A stretch of DNA of 64,000 nt from an uncultured Bdellovibrionales bacterium (GTDB lineage: Bacteria > Myxococcota > XYA12-FULL-58-9 > CAYXVF01). The notes under the pieces are model-generated. The model was not told the DNA's origin. It ran no database searches and saw only the letters and a list, made by a program, of their open reading frames with translations. The position numbers and the translations under genes were made by a program. This document shows positions 59,316 to 63,908 of the stretch, piece by piece (within the stretch, counting starts at the first letter, position 1; each line of letters opens with the position of its first letter). Location: NCBI GenBank assembly GCA_964468125.1, contig CAYXVF010000020.1, forward strand, positions 2,468-66,467, given 5' to 3'.

Positions 59316-61223
59316 ATGCTGGCCTGGCTTCGGAATACGTGGAAGACGCAACCCGCCATTACGGGGATCTACTGCTCGGATATCGGCGTGAAACGCACCA
59401 GCGAGCAGATGTTCGAGATCAACAAGGCGGGGTTCTTCGACGCCCTCGACGATGAGACCAAGGAGCTGTACGAAAAACTGCTCCTGAAGCATCCGGACCG
59501 CACGCGTAAACTAGTTCGACCCTACGAAGACATCGTTGCGACCGGGAAAGACGGCGCGAAGCGACAGGCGGAGTTTGAGCGCGTAGCGCTCGAGCTCTTG
59601 GAAGATGCGGCGCGCGGCGTCATGGCGCGTTGCAGTCTCGAGCCTGAAGACATCGACATCGTCATCTGCAATTACATGGCCGGCCAGACTCTGCCTTCCC
59701 TCACCGCGCACATCTCGGGCAAGCTCGGTCTGCGCGACGATGTCTACACGGTGAACATGGGCGACATGGGCTGCTCCGCTGCGGTTGCTTCACTGGACGT
59801 CGCGACCCGCGTGTTGAGGAGCTTCAAAGGTCCGAAGCGCGCGCTCGTCATCTCCACCGAACCGGTGAGCAATCTCTTCCGACCGGCGGACAACGCCGCG
59901 GGCGCCGTCGGCAATGCGCTCTTTGGTGAAGGCAGCGCGGCGATCATACTGTCCACCTACCGCGAGCCAGCACTCTACACGATCCGCGCACAGCAGCGTG
60001 TACACCGAACCGACCCGGATAGCCTCGACGCGATCAAGACCGTCTGGGCGCACGGCGGTCCGATGATCCAACTCTCGAAAGACATCCCCGCCGTCGCAGG
60101 CAAAGCGATCGAAGCGAACCTCAAGCGCTTGGTACCCATGCTGCTCTCTCCTTGGGAAAAGCTGAAGTACCTCGTCACCCGGAAGATCCCGAAGTGGCAG
60201 CGCAAGATCAGCCGTTGGGCCCTGCACCCGGGCGGCATGGCCGTCCTGCGCGGCCTGCAGAAGCAGCTTCGCCTCGCCGAGGCGGACCTCGGACCGAGCT
60301 ATCGGGTCTTTCAAGAGCGCTCGAACATGAGCTCGCCATCGGTGGTCTACGCCCTCGACCACATCGAGAGACAGCGTCCGAAGGCCGGTGAAAAGGTGCT
60401 GATGATGAGCTTCGGCTCGGGCTTCAAGGTCAACTCGATGGTGCTGCAGAAGTCGAAGAAGTACATCTACGACAAGGCCGAGAAGTTCGCGGTCGTCGCT
60501 GGTGGAACGAGCGGGATCGGTCTCGACGCAGCGAAGCAGCTCGCCGAGCAAGGCTACCACCTCTTCATCGGCTCGCGACGCGTGGCGCACAACGGGAGCT
60601 TCGAGCGAATCAAAGGCGCCACTTATCTGCCCCTCGACATTACCGATCCGGAGTCCGTGGACAGCTTCGTGAATGAAGTGTGGAAGCGCAGCTTCGGAAT
60701 CGATGCGCTGATTGTGAGCTCGGGCGTGGCGCCAAAACCTAAGCTGCAAGGCCAACAAAACCCACACGATATCGTTAATGCGGTGCAGACCAATCTCACG
60801 GGCGCGATGATGCTGGTCAACGCGTTCATTCCGAAGATGCGGGTGAAGGGCAAGGTCGTGCTCCTGAACTCGATCCTCGGCCAGATTCCACTGATGGGCA
60901 ACGCCGCCTACTGCGCTACGAAGGCGGGGCTTCATCACTTTGCCGAATCCGTCGGCGTGGAGCTCAAGCGCGCAGGACGAGGCGTACAGGTTCACTCGCT
61001 CTATCCGGCCTACGTGAAGACTCCCATGCTCGAGGGCGTGCAGAACGGTGGGCGAACCTTCTTGAAGCCCGTAGAGCCCGAGGTGGTCACTCGGCAGATC
61101 GCGCGCATTCTCGCAGGTCGAGCACGGGAGGCCGACGGCTTCATTCTGAAGCGCGACAAGCTCATTGCAGGCTTCTATCACTATCTGCCCGGACCCTTTA
61201 AGAATCTGCTCTCCGCCATGTAG
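59316..61223 (+). CDS. FAE1/type III PKS-like condensing enzyme fused to an SDR reductase
   Basis: Cys-His-Asn triad (MGCSA, LHPGG, SNMSS) and FGSGFKVNS, then SDR motifs AGGTSGIG, NS and YCATK. ATG 59316 is preceded by GGGAG/GAGG. Confidence 0.88.
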   Translation: MLAWLRNTWKTQPAITGIYCSDIGVKRTSEQMFEINKAGFFDALDDETKELYEKLLLKHPDRTRKLVRPYEDIVATGKDGAKRQAEFERVALELLEDAARGVMARCSLEPEDIDIVICNYMAGQTLPSLTAHISGKLGLRDDVYTVNMGDMGCSAAVASLDVATRVLRSFKGPKRALVISTEPVSNLFRPADNAAGAVGNALFGEGSAAIILSTYREPALYTIRAQQRVHRTDPDSLDAIKTVWAHGGPMIQLSKDIPAVAGKAIEANLKRLVPMLLSPWEKLKYLVTRKIPKWQRKISRWALHPGGMAVLRGLQKQLRLAEADLGPSYRVFQERSNMSSPSVVYALDHIERQRPKAGEKVLMMSFGSGFKVNSMVLQKSKKYIYDKAEKFAVVAGGTSGIGLDAAKQLAEQGYHLFIGSRRVAHNGSFERIKGATYLPLDITDPESVDSFVNEVWKRSFGIDALIVSSGVAPKPKLQGQQNPHDIVNAVQTNLTGAMMLVNAFIPKMRVKGKVVLLNSILGQIPLMGNAAYCATKAGLHHFAESVGVELKRAGRGVQVHSLYPAYVKTPMLEGVQNGGRTFLKPVEPEVVTRQIARILAGRAREADGFILKRDKLIAGFYHYLPGPFKNLLSAM

Positions 61224-61305
61224 AGCGTACCGCTCCACTGAGGGGCGGTGGGGCTCCCTTGCAACGCGCGTTTTCAGCACGCTCCAACGTGTCCATACTC
61301 TGTCA

Positions 61306-61572
61306 GTGGAGTCAGGCGAGAAAGATCCACGTCGAGTCGAGCTCGATACGATGTGGCGCGACATGGTTCGCGTCGTTGGCCGCATCAGCAACCATCCCGC
61401 CTTCTGGCTCGGAGGCTTCGGGGCTGGCGCGCTCGGCGTCGTGGCAGCTTGGTTCTGGGTCGATGGTCCCCCTCCCTTCCGCCTCCTGGTGGGTGTCCAC
61501 TTCTTCTTTTACCTTTGGCTCGGGGTCGGTTATCTAACGGCAAAGCTCGCACTCAGGCGAGCTGGCCAGTGA
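61306..61572 (+). CDS. Small two-TM membrane protein (paralog 1)
   Basis: Two hydrophobic helices; aligns with the next ORF; start uncertain (61306 or 61351). Confidence 0.65.
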   Translation: MESGEKDPRRVELDTMWRDMVRVVGRISNHPAFWLGGFGAGALGVVAAWFWVDGPPPFRLLVGVHFFFYLWLGVGYLTAKLALRRAGQ

Positions 61573-61841
61573 GAGTCAGTGTGCAAGAAGAAAAGGAACC
61601 AGAAACCCCCGAAGAAGTCATGGATGCGGTCTTCAAGGACGCCATTCACGGTGTGGGGTATCTCTTCAATACCCGAGCGTTTTGGATCCCTGGCCTCGTA
61701 GCGGGCTTCATCGGCGTCCTCGCGTCGCTCTTTCTCGTTCCGGGTGAGCCCGCAATGCGTCTCCTCGTCGGAATGGTTTCCTTCTTGGTCTTGTGGATCG
61801 GCGTCGGAGTCACCTTCTCGCTGCTCTCGAAGAAGGGCTGA
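61569..61841 (+). CDS. Small two-TM membrane protein (paralog 2)
   Basis: GTGA start/stop overlap with paralog 1; shared AFW..G..AG..GV.A and RLLVG...F...W.GVG. Confidence 0.7.
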   Translation: MRVSVQEEKEPETPEEVMDAVFKDAIHGVGYLFNTRAFWIPGLVAGFIGVLASLFLVPGEPAMRLLVGMVSFLVLWIGVGVTFSLLSKKG

Positions 61842-62195
61842 GCGCTCGACCTGCAATCTGCGCGGCTTTGGCCGCTTCCGCTCGCTCCGTGGACTCGTAA
61901 TACAGGCCCACGGTCACCCGCGAAGAACGCGGCCTTCTCGGGCTCGTACTCTTCCGGCCGACGAATCTGCTCGGAGAAGCGTTGGCTCGCGGCGAGCTCC
62001 CAAAGTGAAAATGGGCCGCGTGCCCCATCGTGTCTGCGGTTTCTTGTGACTTTCCGGTGAAGTTCTGCCGATTCCCGCACCCCGTCGGCGGCCTGGCCGA
62101 TATCTAGAGACGATCCCAACAACAACCGGACGCATTCCACGGGGCCCGAAGGGCCGCGAGGAGAGTGGTGCGCCCGGCCAGTCAGGAGTCGGTTG

Positions 62196-63908
62196 ATGCA
62201 GCTCGCAGTTCCCGTCACGGGGGAGACGATCCCGTCGGCCAAACCCCGCATGCTCACCATCCCCGAGATCCAGGGGCTCGGGCACATCTCTCCCGTGGAG
62301 GGCGAGCGTGTCGCAACGGCGGGGGTGGTCACGGCGGTTCAGCGCGACGGCTTCTACCTGCAGGACCGCGGCGACGGGAGCGAGCTCACCTCCGACGCCG
62401 TGTTCATTTATACCGGCCGGCAAATGCCGAATGTCGAACGCGGAAATCTCGTCTGGGCCGAAGGCACCGTCGAAGAATTCGCACGCGATCGAAACGCTCT
62501 GAGCAGCACGCAGATCAGCGGTCGAGAGCTGAGGATCGTCAAGCTCGCCGACAAAGCCGACCTCCCGGAGGCGCTCGAGCTCGGCAAGGATCGCCCCCTG
62601 CCCCACCGCGGCATTTACGAAGCGGGGCTTGCCTACGAGTCCATGGAGGGGATGCGGGTCCGGGTCCCCGGCGCACGGGTGATCGGCGCTAGCAACAAAT
62701 ACGGTGACGTCTATATCGCCCCCGACGTCGAAGATTCGCCACTGAACGTCACCACGGACGGCGTACTTCGTGGGAGTCCCTATAGCGCACACCCGCAGCG
62801 CCTGAAGCTCACCTTCGATCCGAAAGTGTTCGGTGCCGAGTCACCAGCCCTCAACGCCGGCGACTACGTTGGACCAATGGAAGGTGTTCTGTTTCACGGA
62901 TTCGGCTTTTACGGGATCAAGCCCGTGGGCCCGGTGGACATTCGTCCCGGCAAGCGCAAGCCAGACGTGACGAAGCTCGAAGGCACGAGCTGGGGCATGA
63001 CGCACGCGAGCTTCAACCTGGAGAATCTCGACGCGAAGGTAGAGGACCCCAAACACCTGCCTCCAGGCGGCCGTCCTGACGACGACGTCGGGAGCGGAAA
63101 GCTCCAGGCGATCGCCGAACAGATCGTGAAAAACCTGAAGAGCCCGGACTTGCTCAGCCTTCAGGAGATCCAGGACAACGATGGAAGCGAAGACCGCGGC
63201 GTCACGGACGCATCGAAGACCTGGGAGGCGCTGATCGAAGCCATCGTCGCAGCGGGCGGCCCCCGCTACGAATGGGCCGACAGCGAGCCTCGCGCCGCGA
63301 ATGAGGACGGTGGCCAACCGGGCGGAAACATCCGGGTCGGCTTCCTCTACAACCCGAAACGCGTCGAGCTCGACCGCGCCTCACTCACGCGCGTCGGTGA
63401 AGATGAGCCTGGCTTTGAGGGCGGTCGCAAGTCGCTCTCCTCACGGTTCACGTTCAAGCCAACAGGGAAATCGGTGCACGTGATCAACAATCACTGGGCG
63501 TCCAAGTATGGAAGCACGCCAACCTATCGCAATCCGAACATGCCCGAGATCATCGGTGGCGAGGCGGAGCGAAAGGCGCAACAGGAGGTGATCGGGCGGC
63601 ACGTGGGCTTGCTTCTGCGCAACGACCCCGCCGCGCGAATTCTGTCGGTTGGTGACTTCAACGCGCCCGAATACGAAGCCCCGCTTCTCGCCCACGGTGC
63701 CGGCGCTCTGTTCAATCTGGGCGATACCGTTCCGGACTCTGAGCGTTACTCCTATGTCTTTCAGGGGATCGCGGAGGCGATCGACCACCAATTCGGGAGC
63801 CGGAACCTCGCCGACAAGGTGGAGTTCGAGTACGTCCACATCAATTCGCCGTTCGCGAAGAAAGCGACGGATCACGACCCGAACATCTCTCGCATCGACA
63901 TGCGTTGA
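62196..63908 (+). CDS. Endonuclease/exonuclease/phosphatase family nuclease (ExeM/YhcR-like OB fold plus EEP)
   Basis: TIPEIQG...SP..G, GVVTA, FYLQD, YESMEGMRV, SFNLENL, LQEIQD, NHW.SK, GDFN and TDHDP motifs; AGGAG RBS. Confidence 0.9.
   Translation: MQLAVPVTGETIPSAKPRMLTIPEIQGLGHISPVEGERVATAGVVTAVQRDGFYLQDRGDGSELTSDAVFIYTGRQMPNVERGNLVWAEGTVEEFARDRNALSSTQISGRELRIVKLADKADLPEALELGKDRPLPHRGIYEAGLAYESMEGMRVRVPGARVIGASNKYGDVYIAPDVEDSPLNVTTDGVLRGSPYSAHPQRLKLTFDPKVFGAESPALNAGDYVGPMEGVLFHGFGFYGIKPVGPVDIRPGKRKPDVTKLEGTSWGMTHASFNLENLDAKVEDPKHLPPGGRPDDDVGSGKLQAIAEQIVKNLKSPDLLSLQEIQDNDGSEDRGVTDASKTWEALIEAIVAAGGPRYEWADSEPRAANEDGGQPGGNIRVGFLYNPKRVELDRASLTRVGEDEPGFEGGRKSLSSRFTFKPTGKSVHVINNHWASKYGSTPTYRNPNMPEIIGGEAERKAQQEVIGRHVGLLLRNDPAARILSVGDFNAPEYEAPLLAHGAGALFNLGDTVPDSERYSYVFQGIAEAIDHQFGSRNLADKVEFEYVHINSPFAKKATDHDPNISRIDMR

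Follow-up and report, generated by a model that had tools for sequence, protein, structure and literature searches.

A predicted soluble 3-ketoacyl-CoA synthase-like enzyme joined to a ketoreductase-type domain in an uncultured bacterium of the Myxococcota

Results

A condensing domain and a reductase domain share one open frame

We analyzed a stretch of 64,000 nucleotides (hereafter the window) from contig CAYXVF010000020.1 of an uncultured bacterium assigned to the Myxococcota, which is represented by a metagenome-assembled genome (MAG) of 6.4 Mb in 261 contigs and 97.6% completeness. Between a divergent M3 oligopeptidase gene and two short reading frames, the window carries a gene whose product (P0001) joins a condensing domain resembling the FAE1-type 3-ketoacyl-coenzyme A (CoA) synthases (KCS) of plants to a short-chain dehydrogenase/reductase (SDR). 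The start of the gene was placed at the ATG at 59316, which follows a purine-rich stretch and corresponds to the methionine at which the homologue P0002 (93% identity, 635 aa) begins. A longer frame starting from a GTG at 58983 was rejected; it would overlap the divergent peptidase gene and is supported by no homologue. All signature segments quoted in the initial annotation of this DNA, which was made from the sequence alone, were found in the translation, namely LPSLTA, NMGDMGCSA, ALVISTE, LSKDIPAVAGKAIEANL, KIPKW, FGSGFKVNS, GGTSGIG and YCATK.

Table 1 Features of the fusion gene and its surroundings. Positions refer to the window unless another locus is named; 21/21 refers to the window protein and its 20 full-length homologues.
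Feature	Position	Strand	Details
Whole fusion gene	59316..61223	+	635-aa bifunctional protein and stop codon; single open frame
Condensing domain (KCS-like / type III polyketide synthase fold)	59316..60470	+	residues 1-385; Pfam, PDB sequence matches, Foldseek
Catalytic Cys153 codon	59772..59774	+	motif GDMGCSA; in register with the plant KCS active-site Cys; invariant 21/21
KCS-type insertion	60123..60206	+	approximately residues 270-297, KRLVPMLLSPWEKLKYLVTRKIPKWQRK; 21-row representative alignment
Catalytic His304 codon	60225..60227	+	motif LHPGG; aligns to the KCS His; invariant 21/21
Catalytic Asn337 codon	60324..60326	+	motif SNMSSPS; aligns to the KCS Asn; invariant 21/21
FGSGFKVNS loop	60411..60437	+	residues 366-374; F366, G367, S368, G369 and F370 invariant in 21/21
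Classical SDR (ketoreductase) domain	60477..61220	+	residues 388-635; Pfam, NCBIfam
Glycine motif GGTSGIG	60501..60521	+	residues 396-402; invariant 21/21
SDR active site YCATK	60909..60923	+	Tyr532 and Lys536, with Asn493 and Ser519 upstream; all four invariant 21/21
Intergenic region	59063..59315	.	253 bp separating the fusion gene from the divergent M3 gene; promoter presumed here
M3 oligopeptidase gene	56984-59062	-	Peptidase_M3 455 bits; divergent from the fusion gene
First small downstream frame	61352-61572	+	73 aa
Second small downstream frame	61621-61841	+	73 aa
Unassigned upstream frame	53778-55181	+	467 aa
Sterol methyltransferase gene at locus L016	4492-5649	-	Sterol_MT_C 87.4 bits; divergent neighbour; Myxococcota MAG; eukaryote-like lipid gene

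Homologues were taken from the best 120 of 210 matches in a collection of 5.8 billion proteins. Among them, 20 full-length proteins (P0002-P0021) of 602-682 aa share 52-93% identity with the window protein over 95-100% of the query, and each combines an FAE1 with an adh_short domain. These sequences stem from NCBI, JGI, ENA and Logan assemblies, and three are labelled by NCBI as Myxococcota MAG proteins. The gene also occurs in two genome records of other lineages, with 68% (locus L016) and 58% (locus L017) identity. Some of the homologous genes sit on contigs as long as 366 kb and 896 kb. When the window protein was aligned with these 20 sequences (alignment A1, 21 rows), no gap was seen at the domain junction, and AlphaFold2 run on this alignment returned one compact model with a mean predicted local distance difference test (pLDDT) score of 85.7 and a predicted template modelling (pTM) score of 0.88. 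At the nucleotide level, the gene is covered without indels by contigs of two sequencing runs, both labelled microbial mat metagenome. One run, X1, may be the source of this DNA; the other, X2, stems from another sample of that study, and its record 3 spans 59820-61500 across the junction with two substitutions and no indel. No RNA run was listed among those that hold the gene.

The gene is thus real and intact, and the fusion is conserved. The initial annotation had read the condensing domain as continuing in frame into a classical SDR and had named an assembly or frameshift error as the threat to this reading; the open frame of 635 aa, the 20 homologues and the ungapped junction bear out the continuation, and the contigs of both runs cross the junction without an indel. 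That the fusion is an artefact or a decaying gene may be argued from the fragmentation of the MAG into 261 contigs and from the origin of both gene-bearing runs in a single study, but the same architecture in 20 full-length homologues of several sources, the ungapped junction and invariant catalytic residues, the orthologues in two other lineages, the second-sample contig and the confident model leave this idea with practically no weight. On the grounds of the homologues, the junction and the second-sample contig, an artefact is excluded as far as sequence data allow.

The condensing domain carries a complete triad and KCS-type features

In the Pfam comparison, the condensing half matched FAE1_CUT1_RppA with 119.8 bits (residues 89-288, profile positions 81-284 of 290, cut-off 27). 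Chal_sti_synt_N (47.7 bits) and Chal_sti_synt_C (46.3 bits) were also above their cut-off of 27 and remained below the FAE1 score, while ACP_syn_III and ACP_syn_III_C reached 25.4 and 41.5 bits, respectively. The initial annotation had suggested a comparison of these profiles, and the FAE1 family clearly scores higher than the two chalcone synthase profiles. It had further described a thiolase-fold enzyme with a Cys-His-Asn triad and without the N-terminal transmembrane helices of FAE1, and both parts of this description hold. In a sequence alignment with the solved citrus KCS6 (9kqg), Cys153, His304 and Asn337 fall in register with the triad of the plant enzyme, and all three are conserved throughout alignment A1. 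Within the first 120 residues, the highest 19-residue Kyte-Doolittle mean is 0.76, compared with 2.1 and 2.5 in two plant KCS, so that no transmembrane segment was detected, and the AlphaFold2 model opens directly with the catalytic fold. As judged from its sequence, the condensing enzyme is soluble.

Two further elements link the domain to KCS. The first is an insertion that precedes the His strand; the segment follows an LSKD motif. In an alignment of 21 representatives, this KCS-type insertion is common to the fusion clade, a clade of gammaproteobacterial relatives (see below), two further bacterial clades and the eukaryotic KCS, and it is missing in all six rows of ordinary type III polyketide synthases (PKSs). 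The second is the loop FGSGFKVNS, which corresponds to FGSGFKCNS of KCS, whereas chalcone synthases and ordinary type III PKSs carry a loop of the GFGPG/GPGF type in the same alignment. Plant and algal FAE1-type KCS (citrus KCS6, 9kqg/9lgy; maize CER6, 9uu3) therefore share with the fusion protein the thiolase fold, the triad, the GSGFK(V/C)NS loop and the segment after the LSKD motif, and presumably also the chemistry of joining acyl-CoA with malonyl-CoA. They differ from it by their N-terminal membrane helices, by about 12 more residues in the insertion, by higher FAE1 scores at an identity of only 26-33%, and by the lack of a fused reductase. For KCS6, a published study describes the condensation of acyl-CoA with malonyl-CoA to 3-ketoacyl-CoA by means of a Cys-His-Asn triad, namely C224/H391/N424 (PMC12716393).

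The second group of comparison, consisting of the mycobacterial enzymes Pks11 and Pks18 and the alkylresorcinol and alkylpyrone synthases, resembles the fusion protein in being soluble and in having a similar length and fold. Pks11 is its best match outside the KCS by sequence and its top match in a Foldseek search. Unlike the fusion protein, these bacterial long-chain type III PKSs have no KCS-type insertion, a GPG-type loop and no fused reductase, and they belong to a separate clade.

The reductase domain is a complete but generic SDR

The C-terminal half was matched by adh_short with 122.7 bits (residues 390-575), adh_short_C2 with 101.1 bits and KR with 42.1 bits. Many SDR and FabG models of NCBIfam also matched (FabG up to 98.7 bits), all of them under their cut-offs, and since no NCBIfam model reaches its cut-off, the protein is covered by no curated naming family. 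The domain shares with classical SDR ketoreductases, such as FabG, PhaB-type acetoacetyl-CoA reductases and the eukaryotic 3-ketoacyl-CoA reductase (KCR), the glycine motif, the Asn-Ser-Tyr-Lys tetrad and the length. Besides these, residues S420-R421-R422 after the second strand are invariant in 21/21 sequences, which by the general rules of SDR cofactor preference we take as a sign of NADPH use. The best PDB matches of this half are NADPH-type alcohol dehydrogenases and FabG.

When the SDR half was searched alone, high identity was found only to fragments of further fusions on contigs of 1.3-2.6 kb (P0266, 62%; P0267, 81%; P0129, 48%). Free-standing SDR relatives, again limited to the best 120, share 28-35% identity and are unnamed or listed as 'uncharacterized oxidoreductase'. 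The domain differs from the classical ketoreductases in that none of these relatives is more than 35% identical to it and in falling short of every specific NCBIfam model. None of these 120 relatives bears the name KCR, a count that was made by names, with no KCR sequence compared directly. Thus, the reductase half is best described, from its sequence motifs, as a generic and catalytically complete SDR of the ketoreductase type. The initial annotation had regarded it as a possible KCR partner of the condensing domain. The complete classical SDR with its tetrad bears out the fused reductase, while no specific kinship with eukaryotic KCR emerged among the named relatives.

Sequence relationship to KCS and type III PKSs

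Next to these individual features, profile scores and sequence searches place the condensing domain nearer to KCS. Its best solved sequence relatives are the plant KCS6/CER6 (E 4.5e-38 to 5.9e-33, ~27% identity), followed by Pks11 of M. tuberculosis (E 5.4e-24) and by Steely1 and chalcone synthases (~1e-19). With the FAE1_CUT1_RppA profile, seven eukaryotic KCS score 250-405 bits. The fusion proteins, their gammaproteobacterial relatives and the metagenomic proteins P0028/P0029 follow with 103-137 bits, and in the fusion and gammaproteobacterial clades the match extends to profile position 283-284, passing through the KCS-type insertion in the window protein. Lower values were obtained for five ordinary type III PKSs (51-76 bits, with a match that ends at position 206-213 of 290), for a further bacterial clade, bactC (44-64 bits in four proteins), and for the two type III PKSs of the source genome itself (63 and 48 bits). 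Given the range of the eukaryotic KCS, the match of the fusion protein has to be regarded as intermediate.

A first tree of 77 sequences was built from 16 fusions, 8 unfused bacterial relatives, 21 eukaryotic KCS, 18 plus 10 type III PKSs, two odd rows and two FabH-like outgroups. Here, the fusions group with the gammaproteobacterial proteins (96), and this pair stands beside the eukaryotic KCS with a support of 91 in the SH-like approximate likelihood ratio test (SH-aLRT). A second, more careful maximum likelihood (ML) tree was computed with a subset of 51 rows, chosen to shorten the run time. It recovered the fusion clade (91/99), the gammaproteobacterial clade (100/99) and the union of both (81/89) as well as a clade of eukaryotic KCS (100/100) and one of 15 ordinary type III PKSs (98/100), and the fusion proteins fall into neither of the latter two. 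Their position outside the eukaryotic KCS makes a recent transfer from a eukaryote unlikely. The root of the tree is unsafe because the branch leading to the FabH outgroup is very long. Altogether, the sequences suggest that the fusion clade is an intermediate bacterial lineage, for which a place beside the KCS is the best, though unproven, position.

Relatives without the reductase and other look-alikes

The nearest relatives of the condensing domain are unfused proteins of marine Gammaproteobacteria with 40-45% identity in the trimmed alignment, namely P0024 of Microbulbifer, P0025 of Marinobacter and the metagenomic P0023, P0026, P0027 and P0126. They carry the same insertion and loop and, in place of the SDR, a tail of 100-140 aa without a Pfam match. 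This tail resembles a strand-helix element of the SDR around VWKRSFGIDALIVSSGVA over 40 profile columns (hhalign probability 62.6%, E 7e-5), a similarity that was also seen as a BLAST extension, and it retains no nucleotide-binding or catalytic motif. Based on this stretch of similarity, the tail may be the vestige of a lost reductase domain, in which case the fusion would be ancestral to both clades.

Two metagenomic clades (P0028/P0029 and P0148/P0183/P0191/P0212) consist of type III-like proteins of 370-396 aa that contain the KCS-type insertion and show low FAE1 scores or an unsettled position in the tree. A cluster look-up of ten representatives returned generic names or none, and no protein of these two clades carries a named function. 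In the ESM Atlas, clusters of 619-aa proteins (Bacteroidota) and 902-aa proteins (Acidobacteriota) that pair ACP_syn_III with adh_short were found as whole-protein look-alikes at 0.93-0.97. They may be analogous FabH-type/SDR fusions, and fusions of condensing enzymes with SDRs may accordingly recur in other families.

Several long matches were set aside. P0123 (4818 aa, 12 matched stretches) is built of twelve chalcone-synthase units in tandem, probably an array whose genes were merged into one model, and is no relative of interest here. P0182, P0186, P0217, P0247, P0260, P0197 and P0153 (570-880 aa, two SDR stretches) are double SDRs and not fusions with a condensing enzyme.

Distribution and genomic neighbourhood

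The fusion gene is rare. An even sample of 401 genomes of the phylum contained only two with an orthologue (G000, G071), and none was detected in 40 genomes related at the level of order or phylum, where the best non-self match had 32% identity. Clustering of 15 billion proteins at 50% identity yielded a single full-length representative (P0010) and 32 proteins with E < 1e-30. A scan of metagenome loci with the fusion alignment, which settled on the generic patterns V[AIV]GGTSGIG and VGN[TA]LFGEG, yielded only ordinary SDRs (80 loci, 28-33% identity) without a fusion among them and hence added nothing on synteny.

In the window, genes for the M3 oligopeptidase and MnmC lie upstream, and genes for two predicted small membrane proteins and a protein of the endonuclease/exonuclease/phosphatase family lie downstream. 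A promoter scan of 58900-62300 found no sigma-70-like site. The neighbour at L016 is the divergent sterol methyltransferase gene and that at L017 a gene of the arginase family; the fusion gene itself is the only gene that the window, L016 and L017 have in common, and a further locus, L023, falls within L017. As the neighbours differ at each locus, the gene behaves as a self-contained unit, and its context names no pathway. The link to sterols at L016 is not general, since Sterol_MT_C was found in only one of the three fusion-bearing genomes.

Some observations concern the surroundings only. The two tandem frames that directly follow the fusion gene resemble each other in their hydrophobic ends (AFWLGGFGAGALGVVAAWFWV...LLVGVHFFFYLWLGVGY and AFWIPGLVAGFIGVLASLFLV...LLVGMVSFLVLWIGVGV) and by their sequence look like paralogous small two-helix membrane proteins; no Pfam match was obtained (the longer frame was tested), and neither L016 nor L017 contains a counterpart. 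The unassigned upstream frame has a high GC content at third codon positions and no Pfam match, and its last 180 residues form a low-complexity tail rich in Pro, Ala, Thr, Arg and Lys. Strong homologues of the Steroid_dh (3-oxo-5-alpha-steroid 4-dehydrogenase / TECR) family were recorded with E 1e-37 to 1e-59, for example at G000:C48:10921-11364 (L104).

Discussion

Proposed function

We propose, with a probability of roughly 0.55, that the protein acts on its own as a soluble bifunctional enzyme, which would convert acyl-CoA and malonyl-CoA to 3-oxoacyl-CoA and further to 3-hydroxyacyl-CoA. Cys153 would take over the acyl group from acyl-CoA, and His304 together with Asn337 would promote the decarboxylation of malonyl-CoA and the Claisen condensation. 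As with plant KCS, this step would yield a 3-oxoacyl-CoA extended by two carbons. Following a short ungapped linker, the C-terminal SDR would reduce the labile 3-oxo group to the 3-hydroxyacyl-CoA, probably with NADPH. Eukaryotes have KCS and KCR as two distinct membrane proteins; here, a single polypeptide would catalyse the opening two steps of an elongation cycle, and the fusion might protect or channel the labile 3-oxo intermediate. The 3-hydroxyacyl-CoA could be used for hydroxy-fatty-acid lipids, for polyhydroxyalkanoates or for additional rounds of elongation. The sequences demonstrate the architecture, two intact active sites that are conserved together, the conserved fusion, solubility and the KCS-like traits, whereas the use of CoA rather than acyl carrier protein (ACP) substrates, one rather than several condensations, the chain length, the cofactor, the stereochemistry, the fate of the product and the physiological role are inferred.

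A number of points weigh against this proposal. Mean identity in the trimmed alignment is 29.2% to 14 eukaryotic KCS (range 26-33%) and 25.5% to 15 type III PKSs, which is a small margin. In the Foldseek search with the model, Pks11 (3.9e-25) and CER6 (6.5e-25) rank level; all top matches lie between E 4e-25 and 4e-23, so that a fold search cannot separate KCS from type III PKSs. In the 51-row tree, the fusion and gammaproteobacterial clades are sister to KCS with an ultrafast bootstrap (UFboot) of 53 and an SH-aLRT of 93, a weak placement, and in the approximately unbiased (AU) test a constraint that unites them with the type III PKSs costs only 3.18 log-likelihood units (p-AU 0.337) and is not rejected. 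In addition, the SDR half is generic. Neither a dehydratase nor an enoyl reductase partner adjoins the gene, and no neighbour is common to the three loci. A PTPLA-type dehydratase was found in none of the three fusion-bearing genomes, but in none of the control genomes either, so that its absence is uninformative. The Steroid_dh/TECR family is present in all three, but also in 124/401 genomes of the phylum, and with a family this common there is no association. Two claims of the initial annotation are qualified by these results. The closer resemblance to plant KCS than to type III PKSs stands with regard to profile and PDB scores, the insertion and the GSGFK loop, and it is tempered by the weak tree support and the identity margin of about four points. 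Likewise, the phylogeny that it had called for places the clade as sister to the eukaryotic KCS and outside the type III PKSs in the best ML trees, with a bootstrap that is low and an alternative that the AU test tolerates.

The strongest competing explanation, which we consider clearly less probable, is a reducing type III PKS. According to this, the condensing domain would extend a fatty acyl starter several times with malonyl-CoA, in the manner of Pks11, Pks18, ArsB and SrsA, and the SDR would reduce a keto group of the poly-beta-keto intermediate or the released pyrone or resorcinol, giving a specialised lipid or pigment instead of an elongation intermediate. Plant PKSA/B and the tetraketide pyrone reductase form a comparable pairing. 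This explanation is in line with the Chal_sti_synt_N and _C matches above the Pfam cut-offs, with the lead of the alkylpyrone synthase Pks11 in Foldseek (TM-score by target length 0.84 compared with 0.75-0.78 for KCS), with the outcome of the AU test and with the name 'predicted naringenin-chalcone synthase/NAD(P)-dependent dehydrogenase' given to homologues by JGI. The rare and patchy distribution of the gene is also typical of specialised metabolism. However, the product loop is of the KCS-like GSGFK instead of the GFGPG type, the KCS-type insertion is present, and KCS are preferred by 14 orders of magnitude in E-value. Moreover, neither tailoring genes, such as those for methyltransferases or transporters, nor a gene cluster are conserved around the fusion gene.

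An ACP-dependent type II fatty-acid module of the FabH-plus-FabG kind, which would prime or supplement the synthesis of membrane or 3-hydroxy fatty acids (lipid A, ornithine lipid), appears improbable. The ACP_syn_III and ACP_syn_III_C matches, the FabG model scores and, as a lead only, the ESM Atlas look-alikes point in this direction, but the FabG and FabH scores in NCBIfam are far under their cut-offs (fabH TIGR00747, 35.9 against 292.1), the genome encodes a genuine FabH elsewhere (368.6 bits) with which the protein shares 17% identity, and a housekeeping role is at odds with the rarity of the gene in the phylum. To all other explanations together we assign a still smaller share.

Relevance for KCS evolution and lipid biology in the Myxococcota

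Both enzyme classes combined here, the KCS/type III PKS group and the SDR ketoreductases, are already known. In the literature searched, which did not extend to subscription journals, no publication was found that deals with a KCS-SDR fusion in bacteria or with a bacterial FAE1-type KCS, and no description of the conserved KCS-like plus SDR architecture, of its soluble form or of bacterial clades with the KCS-type insertion. The names that databases give to the fusion family are generic.

FAE1-type KCS have been described in print as plant-specific, and they set the chain length in the synthesis of plant waxes, suberin and seed oil. A far-reaching scenario, which we regard as speculative and rather unlikely, is that no surviving prokaryotic lineage stands closer to the eukaryotic FAE1-type KCS than the fusion clade and its gammaproteobacterial sister. 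Eukaryotes would then have obtained KCS from a bacterial, soluble and CoA-dependent ancestor and later have added the membrane anchors and the extra ~12 residues of the insertion, and the Myxococcota protein would be a soluble 'half-elongase' (KCS plus KCR) that makes 3-hydroxyacyl-CoA, possibly long-chain, without a membrane complex.

FAE1-type KCS are bound to membranes, which makes it difficult to investigate or engineer them. A bacterial relative that is soluble and already joined to its reductase would lend itself readily to work on structure and mechanism, and it would be a candidate part for the production of long-chain or 3-hydroxy fatty acids in bacteria. The existence of a bacterial clade with KCS-specific features bears on the origin of the eukaryotic elongase type. 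Finally, its presence in uncultured Myxococcota extends the list of eukaryote-like lipid genes in this phylum, with one of the loci adjoining a sterol methyltransferase gene.

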